From NCBI GenBank assembly GCA_964374115.1, contig CAYJXK010000002.1, positions 1 through 57,286 on the forward strand: a stretch of DNA of 57,286 bases. Reading direction: 5' to 3'. Of this stretch, positions 1 to 57,286 are shown piece by piece. This DNA comes from an uncultured Gammaproteobacteria bacterium. GTDB taxonomy: Bacteria > Patescibacteriota > Patescibacteriia > Magasanikbacterales > UBA922. Numbering within the stretch: position 1 is the stretch's first letter; each line of letters starts with the position of its first letter. The notes below the pieces were generated by a model. That model did no database searches. It was not told the origin of the DNA and was given only the letters and a program-made list of their open reading frames with translations. The position numbers were made by a program, and so were the translations under genes.

Positions 1-45
1 GGATAAAGCCATATTTTACCATTAAGGTGGTGCATTTAGATTAGA

Positions 46-614
46 CTACTGCGAGTTCGTTTGAGTTTTCGTTGTCAGGTCCGTTGCTTCCAATGTCGTT
101 TGATTGGTCAGTTTCATGAACTTACCCACATCCGCGGATTTACTGACTCTTAACACGTACCTCAACACTACAACCTATGATTTTGATCACCTTCTCGCCC
201 TTCACCATAAAAAATCCTCACTGTATCTACGGATACACCTGCGTTTTTTACGGTTCCAGGGCTTCGAATCTGACTCAAAATCATACCGTGTATTCGTTAA
301 GGTACGTGTTAAGAGTCAGTAGGAGTGATGGCCACATCAAACCAAGTCTGTGCTTGCTTGATGTCTTTTGGAAGTTTGGATATTTGCCAACGAACCTGTC
401 GCGTCGTTGGATTGTACGAGAGAACACCGATGTCTTTTCCCGATGTTTCTTTCCAAATGACATCTTGCGGAAGAATCGTTGACACTTCGACATTTCCAAG
501 ATCATGCAAGGAGTTCTTCAAATTCCAAATCACACGATAGGACGTTGTGACACCCATACGTGGAGGGAGATCACCCGTCCCGACGGGTGTCCCATCGTTG
601 TTGACACATGTCAT
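46..614 (-). pseudogene. Hypothetical ORF interrupted by MITE-A copy 1. Upstream part is 322..614; the remaining 31 codons plus stop are at 46..138.
   Basis: ORF 309..614(-) runs into the element and stops at a TAA inside its terminal repeat. The reverse strand of 46..138 is open (SADVGKFMKLTNQTTLEATDLTTKTQTNSQ*). It comes into frame with the upstream part only if the 182-bp element is removed, or 179 bp if a TA duplication is assumed. Both lengths are 2 mod 3, and 614-138=476. Confidence 0.55.
140..321 (+). mobile_element. MITE-like element, family A, copy 1 (~182 bp). It has 22-bp perfect terminal inverted repeats, TACTGACTCTTAACACGTACCT...AGGTACGTGTTAAGAGTCAGTA.
   Basis: Nearly identical to 16430..16612 (about 6 differences). 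Its 3' 55 bp are identical to the reverse complement of 57232..57286. The inverted arms extend to about 50 bp with mismatches. Both ends are flanked by TA. No coding capacity. Confidence 0.85.
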
Positions 615-630
615 CTTTTTAGCATAAGAT
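601..630 (+). promoter_or_regulatory. Sigma70-like promoter candidate for the exporter operon (TTGACA-18-TAAGAT)
   Basis: TTGACA at 601-606 and TAAGAT at 625-630. The ATG at 640 follows after 9 nt, which implies a very short leader. Confidence 0.4.
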
Positions 631-639
631 GACCAGACT

Positions 640-2412
640 ATGATTCACATTTCAAAACTTCGCGTTCCTAAAAAATACATTCCCTGGGTCATCATCGGCG
701 TCCTTGTGATTGGAGGGATAGCGATGAGCGCATTTGGAAAAGGAGAAAAAGATTCTCGCTATGAGTCCATCATTGCAAAGCGTCGTGATGTGATGGAAGA
801 GACGATTGTCACTGGCCGAGTGACTCCGGCAGATCGGGTGGATCTGTCATTTGAGCAAAGTGGCCGGATTGTTTCTCTTTTTGCCACCGTTGGAAATCAA
901 GTGAAAAAGAGCGCACTTTTGGCAGTCCTGAATAATGCCAATCTCATGGCAGAACTCACAAACGCGCAGGCTGGGATAGAGAGCGCTGAAGGCATGCTTG
1001 CACAATATCAGGCAGCGCGCGAGAGGGAAAAAGTGAAATTGAAAGAATTGGAGCTTGGGATTAGAAAAGAAGAGATCACGATCGCAGAAACGAGCGTGGC
1101 AAATGCCAAAAAAACACGCGCAGACGCAGAGGCCACGCTTGATGACGCAAAGAAAAAAGGCGATGTAGATCTTGCGAATGTGTATGGGGATGTTTCGGAT
1201 ATATTGCAAGATGTGTTTACGAAAATCGATGACGCGCAGAACAAACAGATTGATGAGCTTTTTATCGATGACAACGGTTCGAATCCGCAGATCGCATTCT
1301 CTATTCCGAATTTTCAACTTGAATTTGATACGGAATATCAGCGGTTGCTCGCTCGCAATGCTTTGCAAAAATTAAAAAATTCTGTTGACACGCTTCCATC
1401 TGATTATCCGGGAATAGATGTAGCTTTCATCGCGGTAGAAAAACAACTCGTCGTGATTCGAACTTTTTTTGAAAAACTTACCGAGGCAGTGGCGGCGGCG
1501 AACGCGGCATCGTATAAGTCAACTGTGAATACGGCGCGCGGGGTTATCAATACGCAAATCAGCGCGATCAATAACCAGAAACAATTCATTGTCGCGCAAA
1601 AGGCCACAAATGCGCAGTCAATCCTTGCGGCGCAAGCACAGCTCACAGAAGCGAAGAACGCGCTCGAAAGCGCGGAAAAAGAATTGGCGCTGAAAAAAGC
1701 CGGCGCCACAGCCGAGCAGATTGCGGTACAAAACACAGTGATAACGCAGGCTGAGGCTACGGTGCAGACATACGGAGCACAGGTAAAACAAGCGCAAGCG
1801 ACCGTTGCCCGTATTCAAGCAGAGCTCGGGAAAACGGTGATACGGTCGCCATTTGAGGGTACGATCACTGCGGCGCCGTCTCCGGTGGGAGCAATTGTCG
1901 CGGCGTATACCCCTGTGGTCTCCATGATTTCGAGTGATCCATTTGATATTGAGGCATATATTCCAGAAGCAGACATGGCAAAAGTGCGGGTGGGCAACGC
2001 GGTGGCCATGACGTTTGATGCCTATGGTGATGCGGAAGAATTCCACGGCGCCGTCATTGCCATTGATCCCGCAGAAACAGTGATTGATGGAGTGACCACA
2101 TACAAAACCACCATTCAGCTTGCGACGAATGATGATCGTGTGAAATCTGGGATGACGGTGGACGTCACCATTATTGGCGCATCAAAAAAGGACGTCGTCG
2201 CTATCCCACAGCGCGCAGTTATTTCAAAAGATGGAAAACAGATTGTTCGGGTGATCGAGACACCAAATCAAAAAGAAGAGATCGTGGAGAAAGAGGTGAC
2301 ACTCGGCCTTCGAGGCGCGGATGGATTTGTGGAGATTGTGGATGGTGTCGAGGAAGGGGAGAAGGTCGTGGTGTTTGTGGAGGAAAACAAACGATCAAAA
2401 ATTGAAAGTTGA
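640..2412 (+). CDS. HlyD/MacA-family membrane-fusion (periplasmic adaptor) protein with a long coiled-coil
   Basis: N-terminal TM segment, a long A/Q/E/K-rich coiled-coil and C-terminal beta-barrel-like segments. It lies directly upstream of the MacB-type ATPase and FtsX permease. Confidence 0.85.
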   Translation: MIHISKLRVPKKYIPWVIIGVLVIGGIAMSAFGKGEKDSRYESIIAKRRDVMEETIVTGRVTPADRVDLSFEQSGRIVSLFATVGNQVKKSALLAVLNNANLMAELTNAQAGIESAEGMLAQYQAAREREKVKLKELELGIRKEEITIAETSVANAKKTRADAEATLDDAKKKGDVDLANVYGDVSDILQDVFTKIDDAQNKQIDELFIDDNGSNPQIAFSIPNFQLEFDTEYQRLLARNALQKLKNSVDTLPSDYPGIDVAFIAVEKQLVVIRTFFEKLTEAVAAANAASYKSTVNTARGVINTQISAINNQKQFIVAQKATNAQSILAAQAQLTEAKNALESAEKELALKKAGATAEQIAVQNTVITQAEATVQTYGAQVKQAQATVARIQAELGKTVIRSPFEGTITAAPSPVGAIVAAYTPVVSMISSDPFDIEAYIPEADMAKVRVGNAVAMTFDAYGDAEEFHGAVIAIDPAETVIDGVTTYKTTIQLATNDDRVKSGMTVDVTIIGASKKDVVAIPQRAVISKDGKQIVRVIETPNQKEEIVEKEVTLGLRGADGFVEIVDGVEEGEKVVVFVEENKRSKIES

Positions 2413-16373: not shown

Positions 16374-16430
16374 GAAATTCATATCGAGTTTTTTCCTTTC
16401 GCGCGTCAGACACGGAAACTCGCTATGAGT
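16374..16430 (+). repeat. Family B element, short form, directly abutting MITE-A copy 2
   Basis: GAAATTCATATCGAGTTTTTTCCTTTCGCGCGTCAGACACGGAAACTCGCTATGAGTT. Confidence 0.75.
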
Positions 16431-16612
16431 TACTGACTCTTAACACGTATCTCAACACTACAACCTATGATTTTGGTCACCTTCTCGCCCTTCACCATAA
16501 AAAATCCTCACTGTATCTACGGATACACCTGCGGTTTTTTACGGCTCCAGGGCTTCGAATCTGACTCAAAATAATACCGTGTATTCGTTTAGGTACGTGT
16601 TAAGAGTCAGTA
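16430..16612 (+). mobile_element. MITE-like element, family A, copy 2 (183 bp)
   Basis: About 97% identical to 140..321 with the same 22-bp TIRs. TA is present at both ends. Its right TIR contains the last codon and the stop codon of rnhA. Confidence 0.85.
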
Positions 16613-18886: not shown

Positions 18887-18900
18887 ATAAAAATATAAAT

Positions 18901-19077
18901 GAACTCATAGCGAGTTTCTGTGTCTCTCGCGCTTTCCCAAGCGCCATTCAGTCACTTTTTCTTTGCCCGCAACTCTGTGGGTTATATCTGACCGTATGGC
19001 GGGGTCGAGAGCGGGTTTTGGAGACAAAGAAAAAGTGATGGGATGGCGCGAGAGGAAAAAACCTAGCTCATGAGTTC
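18901..19077 (-). repeat. Family B element, full-length long form (177 bp)
   Basis: Termini are GAACTCATAGCGAG... and ...CTAGCTCATGAGTTC. The internal arms GCGCCATTCAGTCACTTTTTCTTTG / CAAAGAAAAAGTGATGGGATGGCGC enclose a ~55-nt GC-rich core. Confidence 0.85.
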
Positions 19078-19091
19078 TATAGTAAATTGGA

Positions 19092-22567: not shown

Positions 22568-22628
22568 GAACTTCATGAGCTAGGTTTTTTCCTTTCGCGC
22601 GAGAGACACGGAAACTCGCTATGAGTTC
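22568..22628 (+). repeat. Family B element, short form (61 bp)
   Basis: GAACTTCATGAGCTAGGTTTTTTCCTTTCGCGCGAGAGACACGGAAACTCGCTATGAGTTC. Its right end overlaps the corA stop codon. Confidence 0.85.
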
Positions 22629-23568
22629 AGAGCCATCGTTTTCGTTTCAAACGATATATGATCACAGCGATGATACCGGACAGGACAGCAAACATGGCCC
22701 ATACCCAAATAGGATTTTCCACAAAAGGGAGACCGCGGATATTCATGCCATAAATACTTGAGAGCACGGAAAATGGCAGAAGGGAAACGGAAATGACTGT
22801 GAGGGTAGACACCGTTTTGTTGATTCTTCGATTGATAAGAGACTCGACCGTGGTATGGAGTCCATTCAGCGTATCTTTGTATGTGTCCACAATCGTCCAA
22901 ATTTTGTTCAAATAATCATTGAGATCATCAAAATACAGACTCGTTTCCTCATTGAGGAATGGTTTGTGGATGTGAGTGATCGTGCTCACAAGATACCGTT
23001 GGGGGTCAATCACCCGTCGAAAATTCACCACGTTTCTGCGATGACGAGCGAGCTCGTAAATGATGCCTGTGTCTGGTTCACTCCCAAAGATTTCTTGTTC
23101 CAAAAGAATAATTTTTTTTCCAATATTATTCAAAATAGGTTGAGAATGTCGAAATAATGCTTCGATAATTCTGTAGAGAAGATATCCAGACGATTGCTCC
23201 ATCCAATCCTGCTTTACGCTTCTATTTTTCATGCAGCGATAAAAAAAATTTTTCATTTCTTTGGATTTTTCATTTTGGATGGTCACGAGGTATCCTTCTC
23301 CCAGAAAAATATCCACTTCATGATGAACAACGGTGCGGTCGTGCGCCTGCCACTGGGGAAATTGGAGAATGACAAAAAGGTAATTTTTGTATACATCCAC
23401 CTTGGGAATGTGGCTTTCTCCCTGCACATCTTCGAGATCCAGGTGATGAAATGAAAAGTTCTGACGCAGATAAGTGACTGCCGTCTCGTCCACATGATCA
23501 ATGTTGATCCATTTGAGTCGTGCTGACTCGATAATTTTGATGGCCATATAGGTTTTTCGATATTGCAA
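22627..23568 (-). CDS. corA: Magnesium/cobalt transporter CorA
   Basis: The YGMNIRGLP (GMN) motif followed by the C-terminal TM pair. Confidence 0.93.
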   Translation of the reverse strand: MQYRKTYMAIKIIESARLKWINIDHVDETAVTYLRQNFSFHHLDLEDVQGESHIPKVDVYKNYLFVILQFPQWQAHDRTVVHHEVDIFLGEGYLVTIQNEKSKEMKNFFYRCMKNRSVKQDWMEQSSGYLLYRIIEALFRHSQPILNNIGKKIILLEQEIFGSEPDTGIIYELARHRRNVVNFRRVIDPQRYLVSTITHIHKPFLNEETSLYFDDLNDYLNKIWTIVDTYKDTLNGLHTTVESLINRRINKTVSTLTVISVSLLPFSVLSSIYGMNIRGLPFVENPIWVWAMFAVLSGIIAVIIYRLKRKRWL

Positions 23569-39336: not shown

Positions 39337-39410
39337 TTTCTCAGGCGCAGTCTGGACAACAAGGGGGAAAAGATGATATCCTCGCAGACAGGAAAGAGAT
39401 TACATCCATT

Positions 39411-39509
39411 CTCGACCACGCCATATGGTGAGATATGGCCCACAGAGTTGCCGGCAAAGAAAAAGTGACTGAATGGCGCTCGGGAGAGCGCGAGAGACAC
39501 GGAAACTCG
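39411..39509 (+). repeat. Family B element, half copy (core plus one terminus)
   Basis: The reverse complement aligns with 18901..19010 of the long copy, with scattered substitutions. It ends in GGAAACTCGCTATGAGTTC. Confidence 0.8.
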
Positions 39510-39541
39510 CTATGAGTTCGGAATTAGGAATTCACACTCGT

Positions 39542-57231: not shown

Positions 57232-57286
57232 TTACTGACTCTTAACACGTACCTTAACGAATACACGGTATGATTTTGAGTCAGAT
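57232..57286 (-). mobile_element. MITE-like element, family A, copy 3 (inverted orientation, truncated by the window end)
   Basis: The 55 bp are identical to the reverse complement of 267..321. Confidence 0.85.

Follow-up and report, generated by a model that had tools for sequence, protein, structure and literature searches.

The palindromic sequence at 143..319 of the window is a prokaryotic MITE by its size, non-coding content, terminal inverted repeats (TIRs), copy number and filled and empty sites. The explanation that best accounts for the data as a whole is that it is, most probably, a non-autonomous cut-and-paste MITE that duplicated a TA dinucleotide on insertion and now lies within the dead relic of a foreign DUF11 gene. 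The window, the whole 57,286-nucleotide stretch of DNA analysed here, is the entire contig C2 of a host assembly (G000) of 901,695 bp (0.9 Mb) in 46 contigs with 46% G+C. Contigs of the host genome are denoted by C and a number, and five public metagenome runs are denoted X1 to X5. The features at the left end of the window and the further copies of the element are collected in the table.

Features of the window that bear on the MITE insertion (., strand does not apply)
Feature	Position	Strand	Evidence or remark
Outer end of multi-copy IS30-family insertion sequence	1..52	-	end GCAGTAGTCTAATCTAAATGCACC...; cuts the 3' end of the relic
3' piece of DUF11-gene relic	53..140	-	residues about 554-583 of P0152; blastn 98.9%; tblastn P0152 553-583
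Left TA of target-site duplication	141..142	.	single TA at L041 empty site; 2-nt block overlap; 2 ambiguous letters at run joint
MITE family A body, 177 bp	143..319	.	TIRs 141-162 and 300-321 including TA
Right TA of target-site duplication	320..321	.	L041 empty site and run joint
5' piece of DUF11-gene relic	322..598	-	residues about 461-553 of P0152; blastn L041 96.8%
Upstream region of HlyD-like gene	599..639	+	unrelated to L041; sigma-70-like promoter
HlyD-family membrane-fusion protein gene (590 aa)	640..2412	+	Pfam HlyD_D23 and HlyD_3; resident neighbour, outside the MITE
MITE-A copy 2, 182 bp	16431..16612	.	96.7% identical; TA within stop codon of a 132-aa minus-strand ORF
MITE-A copy 3	57233..57286	.	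inverted; cut by contig end

An earlier note on this DNA had called the element a 182-bp MITE with perfect 22-bp TIRs. The call as a MITE stands and the length does not: counted with both TAs the copy at 141..321 measures 181 bp, and the figure of 182 bp applies to copy 2, in which 1 nt is inserted. The repeats (TACTGACTCTTAACACGTACCT and AGGTACGTGTTAAGAGTCAGTA) match at 22 of 22 positions when the TA is counted and at 25 of 26 on extension; without the TA the repeat is 20 bp long and the end reads TACTGACTCTTAACAC, or TA-CTGACTMTTMACAC with the flanking dinucleotide. The sequence folds as a single long hairpin (-79.6 kcal/mol, z = -14) around a conserved central core, A6-TCCTCA-hairpin-CTGCG-T6. 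No Rfam match was found for the element, a simple scan called no terminator in it despite the A-run, hairpin and T-run of the core, and the ORFs that overlap it are short and without homologues.

The genome-wide count of copies that the earlier note had proposed was made by blastn against the host genome, which identified 8 full copies of this family (family A; two on C2, one on C3, two on C6 and one each on C11, C13 and C19), about 13 at contig ends and 5 degenerate or truncated, together with 7 full copies of a sister family, B. About 20 near-identical MITE-A copies are thus carried in a 0.9-Mb genome, and the two families are spread over 25 or more contigs. Mean pairwise identity is 96.5% among the 8 full A copies and 99.0% among the 7 full B copies. 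The TA that the earlier note saw on the flanks of the copies is present at all visible ends, 47 of 47 in the host genome; the family copies, the hairpin and the TA at every visible end exclude a chance palindrome. For annotation it is worth noting that about 13 contig breaks in this MAG stem from MITE-A alone.

Copy 2 directly adjoins another short palindromic repeat (16375-16430). A third, unrelated palindromic repeat family was observed in the window at 2429-2507, 16375-16431, 18890-19087, 22573-22630 and 39410-39521, with ends TGAACTCATAGCGAGTTT.../...AAACTCGCTATGAGTTCA and in two sizes, a short one of about 60 bp and a long one of about 180 bp. Elsewhere in the host genome, C12:283-3900 holds a direct tandem duplication of 1812 bp with 99.9% identity.

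Two open frames adjoin the element, as the earlier note described: one at 309..614 on the minus strand, which ends at a TAA within the right TIR, and one at 46..138 on the same strand, open but in a different frame. The two are fused by a deletion of 179 or 182 bp and stay apart when 177 or 181 bp are removed. The correct excision is 179 bp, the MITE plus one TA, because the precise empty site, with one TA, is present at an orthologous locus. This locus (L041, CAYJVQ010000007.1 in GCA_964373605.1, genome G041) encodes the uninterrupted homologue that the earlier note had suggested be looked for, a 606-aa protein (P0152) that is 97% identical to the restored sequence. By blastn, L041 7382-7660 corresponds to window 598-320 (96.8%) and L041 7659-7748 to window 142-53 (98.9%); the two blocks overlap by exactly 2 nt, the TA. 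Around the insertion point L041 reads CC-TA-AATC against CC-TA-[177]-TA-AATC in the window or, with longer flanks, GGCCATCACTCC-TA-AATCTGCGG at the empty site and GGCCATCACTCC-TA-[177 bp]-TA-AATCCGCGG at the filled one. Excision of 179 bp in silico gives ...FDVAITPKSADVGKFMKLTNQTTLEATDLTTKTQTNS and the peptide ITPKSADVGKF across the junction, which is identical in P0152; close relatives have ITPKSSDAGKF (P0153), ITPKKADVGKF (P0155) and ITPKSQDVGKF (P0002) at the same place.

The same 179 bp are skipped exactly (140 to 320, with 2 ambiguous letters at the joint) in contigs of two metagenome runs, X1 at 8.3x versus 23x for the filled form and X2 at 4.75x, although run contigs probably share samples with the MAG and are therefore not independent of it. 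The contigs that skip 179 bp have the L041-type base at position 351, so these empty-site contigs come from the owner of the intact gene and not from a strain of the host genome. We conclude that the TA is a target-site duplication and not part of the TIR, as the earlier note had proposed, since the orthologous empty site keeps a single TA and the 179-bp skip recurs in two runs. Taken alone, one site would formally fit just as well a 179-bp element that has TA at one end and duplicates nothing.

The sequence that the MITE interrupts is coding sequence, which agrees with the earlier statement that the element splits an ORF, but the MITE did not inactivate a gene here: the ORF is a doubly truncated fragment. 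L041 homology stops at 598|599 and at 52|53, which leaves a 367-bp piece from the 3' part of a 606-codon gene for a DUF11 membrane protein, corresponding to residues about 461-583 of P0152 (window 53..598). The gene's last 23 codons are missing from the relic. P0152 itself carries Pfam DUF11 (PF01345) at residues 200-278, and the full architecture of DUF11 proteins, an N-terminal transmembrane helix, DUF11 repeats and a C-terminal domain, is not present in the relic. P0152 came up with a query extended by X residues to about 500 aa, which made long proteins candidates. When 41 related genomes were searched in six frames, 37 proved to carry the domain, as the C-terminal ~120 residues of frames that are 551-781 aa long save for one hit, and the alignments run straight across the MITE insertion point; an exhaustive HMMER search returned 1523 hits with the same architecture. 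The restored 129 aa are, by these comparisons, the C-terminal domain of 600-650-aa DUF11 proteins. The 101-aa ORF should accordingly not be annotated as a gene.

Beyond the 5' end of the relic lies the resident HlyD-like gene, preceded at a distance of 10 bp by a promoter-like TTGACA (601-606) and TAAGAT (625-630) with an 18-nt spacer, in which 10 of 12 positions match. The foreign relic stops 3 bp short of the -35 box of this promoter.

Comparison of the host genome with G041 places the source of the relic far from the host. Protein identity between the two genomes is 29% for RuvA, 28% for FemAB, 34% for DUF4012 and 35-53% for three GT4 glycosyltransferases. A syntenic locus of the host itself lies on C19 (three GT4 genes, DUF4012 and DUF11), and its DUF11 protein is only 22% identical to P0152. 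The relic matches G041 over 367 bp at 97-99% DNA identity, whereas the RuvA proteins of the two genomes are only 29% identical, and it therefore appears to be a recent import from a distantly related bacterium of the same groundwater. At the DNA level the rest of the 10.8-kb L041 locus is absent from the host genome, including the gene's first 1.4 kb and its last 73 coding bases.

The simplest history we can infer orders the events as transfer, MITE insertion, IS30 insertion and 5' loss. The foreign DUF11 gene, or a larger piece, would have entered the lineage first; a resident MITE-A would then have landed in the imported sequence, inserting at the TA within CC-TA-AA and duplicating that TA; a resident IS30 element would have cut the 3' end of the imported gene, and the 5' part would have been lost. 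A 505-nt contig of run X3 extends from the MITE end through window 322-598, where it has L041-type bases at two positions (489, 498), into 199 further nt on the 5' side, the first 30 of which are L041 upstream sequence (encoding ...LDAYALYFAD). This haplotype would support an intermediate in which the MITE lay in a longer foreign gene. The insertion would have no functional consequence today, as its host sequence is already dead, and the element is probably ordinary selfish DNA without effect on a working gene.

We analysed the bases next to the TA and found a pyrimidine directly outside it at 44 of 47 intact ends in the host genome (p = 1.2e-10 against 0.5; background, 33% of all TAs in the genome preceded by a pyrimidine) and, outside the host, at 23 of 24 ends from genomes and metagenome contigs. 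Given this excess, the target is the palindrome YTAR, of which the central TA is duplicated. For the placement of copies, each of the 15 full copies (8 A and 7 B) was excised in silico and ORFs were then called. The relic copy is the sole full copy deep in a reading frame (1/15); the other 14 are divided among intergenic positions (8), a stop codon or at most 5 codons from one (5) and a position 7 codons after the first possible ORF start (1, on C46). Of 2682 YTAR sites, 72% lie deep in ORFs, whereas all full copies but one avoid such positions, 14 of 15 being placed between genes or at an ORF end (P about 2.5e-7).

Inward from its end, the repeat reads TA-C TGA or, in another frame, T-ACT-GAC-TCT-TAA (T-ACTGACTCTTAA); owing to these stop codons near the start of the TIR, a gene hit in or near its own stop gains 1-4 codons only. 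Outside the relic, it would appear that copies survive only in intergenic DNA, in stop codons or a few codons from the end of a gene, where the TIR would give an instant new stop. The gene-end bias may reflect either targeting or the mere survival of harmless insertions.

Several other readings of the left end of the window were weighed against these results. Restoration of the frame by the 179-bp excision, together with the ATG at 614, could be taken to mean that the insertion destroyed a small gene of the host bacterium (the 129-aa ORF) that had been intact and functional, a reading to which we give hardly any credence. Among proteins of 71-226 aa the restored frame has no homologue save the window's own ORF, and relatives carry the domain at the end of far longer proteins, mostly of 600-650 aa. 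Both ends of the supposed gene are accidental: the ATG (612-614, minus strand) lies in the upstream region of the HlyD-like gene, past the end of homology at 598|599, so that the first five codons are the neighbour's promoter-like region, and the stop codon (TAG, 46..48) lies inside the IS30 end. It is also very improbable that the TA belongs to the terminal repeat and that no target was duplicated, the palindromic element having spread by a REP/RAYT-like or recombinational route. The presence of TA at every end can be read as repeat sequence, but removal of 181 bp breaks the frame that removal of 179 bp restores, exactly one TA is kept at the empty site, and the preference for a pyrimidine and a purine beyond the TA means that a palindromic 4-bp target is recognised.

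The relic has a contig end within 600 bp, it matches at 97-99% identity a gene from a distant organism of the same samples, and the de Bruijn graph branches at its edge (598), all of which would suit an assembly chimera in which another organism, a G041 relative with MITE and IS30, was wrongly joined to the host over the first 598 bases. We consider this improbable. The junction 598|599 is present in independently built contigs of four runs (X1, X2, X4 and X5), with equal depth on either side (22.6 versus 23.4 in X1; 8.18 in X2 and 8.82 in X4, each in a single contig), and both MITE-A and the IS30 element are abundant in the host genome and absent from the donor-like genome G041.

The mobilising enzyme is the part of the preferred reading that lies beyond the assembly. 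The observation in the earlier note that the window holds no transposase matching the element was borne out and extends to the whole assembly, in which searches for IS630 transposase (NF033545) and for DDE_Tnp_1 (PF01609, IS4/IS5) returned none. Assembly breaks at repeats, and a resident transposase copy could therefore remain unassembled. The earlier note also proposed an IS630/Tc1-mariner origin, for which the TA duplication and the YTAR target speak, while an IS630 element with matching ends was not found. IS630-like hits occur in 6 of 240 genomes of the host's order, and matching ends in none of them. In two MITE-B genomes, G043 and G044, the IS630 elements (TA/CTAG-flanked) have repeats that differ from those of the MITE, and the degenerate TIR pattern TACTGACTMTTMACACRTA, searched in 185,579 species genomes and in JGI/ENA metagenome contigs, retrieved only MITE copies and lone chance matches. 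The missing autonomous partner may reflect sampling. Strict duplication of TA within a palindromic YTAR/CTAG target is a hallmark of IS630/Tc1-mariner elements. On the TA duplication and the YTAR preference, mobilisation of IS630 type is plausible, if unproven, and the MITE would have been moved in trans by an IS630/Tc1-mariner-type DDE transposase encoded outside the present assembly.

IS30 elements make 2-3-bp duplications and members of the IS5/IS427 group 2-4-bp duplications, and the resident IS30 element or a member of the IS5/IS427 group might have mobilised the MITE instead. In favour of such a non-IS630 source, no transposase other than that of IS30 was recognised in the assembly, IS30 is multi-copy there, and no IS630 partner was found. 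Positions 1..52 of the window are 100% identical to C13:19432-19483 and to contig ends of C44 and C35, and the adjoining ORF on C13 matches NF033563 (transpos_IS30) at 125 bits (cut-off 80); among five genomes tested, the element is present only in the host. We reject it as the mobiliser, since its end (GCAGTAGTCTAATCTAAATG; GCAGTAGTCTAATC...) is unlike the MITE end (TACTGACTCTTAAC) and its five visible insertion sites are not TA. For IS5/IS427, the genome contains no DDE_Tnp_1 and no element with MITE ends was found. With the TA duplication in YTAR/CTAG pointing to IS630/Tc1-mariner, and with RUP and IS630-Spn1 as a precedent (PMC2229807), we regard a non-IS630 mobiliser as unlikely. The IS30 copy on C13 (19432-20246) has an in-frame stop near its N-terminus and runs into the contig end. 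Comparison of the genome with itself for long repeats yielded no assembled full-length IS.

The sister family, MITE-B, was found through a 70-bp central stretch with 81% identity and is represented in the host by copies of 183 bp with the TIR TACTGACTATTCACACATAGCT. It agrees with family A in its first 8 nt, in the greater part of the repeat and in the core at the centre (A-run, TCCTCA, short hairpin, CTGCG, T-run), and the arms differ. We identified MITE-B at 95-97% identity in 3 other MAGs of the study that yielded the host, with several copies in one of them; loci with 92-97% identity, mostly from that study, are L009, L012, L013 and L016 (CAYHQU01, CAYIPF01 and CAYHZE01) and L024, L029 and L031 (metagenome contigs with the prefix 'Hain-'). 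The sequences that flank MITE-B in these MAGs and contigs have no DNA similarity to the host genome. One of the MAGs is labelled Gammaproteobacteria, but its genes resemble those of a candidate-phylum bacterium with a small genome. The two carriers G043 and G044 appear to lie outside the host's order, as they are not among its six IS630-positive genomes.

A third MITE variant occurs at 1-150 of a metagenome contig (L025, Ga0209343_10268665); it is 79% identical to family A, has the same core, and is accompanied by a second MITE end at 1082-1103. We considered this contig as a 1.1-kb 'long element' with TIRs and rejected it, as it really holds two MITEs that flank a 242-aa ORF, which, read by eye from the sequence, is presumably an rsmE-like methyltransferase gene. 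As L025 comes from an unrelated metagenome, the MITE superfamily is wider than the present samples.

We tentatively raise the possibility, which we hold to be the less probable reading, that A and B together form a currently active MITE system that spreads horizontally among distantly related small-genome (Patescibacteria-type) bacteria in one aquifer, with no resident transposase. It is suggested by the 95-97% identity of family B in at least 3 other species-level genomes, two of them apparently outside the order, by the position of family A in a gene fragment that was itself recently transferred, and by a TIR that may be shaped to regenerate a stop (TA-C TGA, with one added codon) on landing in a stop codon, TAA and TAG being contained in the YTAR target. 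If the TIR does so, insertions would be nearly harmless in the host genome, of which 90% is coding.

A MITE as such is routine. The present case has modest value in that the filled site of a TA-duplicating MITE and its empty counterpart are both fully documented, in a compact and very small genome of candidate-phyla type, and the near-identical gene fragment from a distant bacterium of the same groundwater testifies directly to very recent exchange and decay of DNA in these organisms. A full-text literature search found no paper on MITEs in Patescibacteria.

Among the elements we examined, an IS630-family element at L042 (G044:C19, 971-2161) offers one comparison with a complete insertion sequence. 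It is 1191 bp long and apparently intact, with perfect 30-bp TIRs and C-TA-G on both sides, and its transposase is read in two frames. It has the 8-mer CTCTTAAC in common with MITE-A at nearly the same distance from the TA, whereas the rest of the terminal repeat is unmatched, and the genome that holds it carries MITE-B and is not the host genome.

The bacterial precedent is RUP, the repeat unit of pneumococcus, with IS630-Spn1 (PMC2229807). RUP and other IS630-derived MITEs resemble MITE-A in being about 100-200 bp long and non-coding, with TIRs, TA insertion and many near-identical copies; an IS630-family transposase is believed to move them in trans (PMC2229807). RUP ends match those of IS630-Spn1 in the same genome, in contrast to MITE-A, for which no matching IS630 was found in the genome, the order or the public collections scanned; MITE-A is also longer than RUP, at 177 bp with 20-bp repeats (22 with the TA). 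The Correia/NEMIS elements of Neisseria, for which the review names no cognate transposase, are about 107-155 bp long with roughly 24-bp TIRs (PMC2229807). They differ from MITE-A in a host of unrelated phylum, and MITE-A has no terminator call. By description, not by sequence, they resemble it in their TA termini and duplication, their long hairpins (those of transcripts in the case of Correia) and their mostly intergenic placement (PMC2229807).
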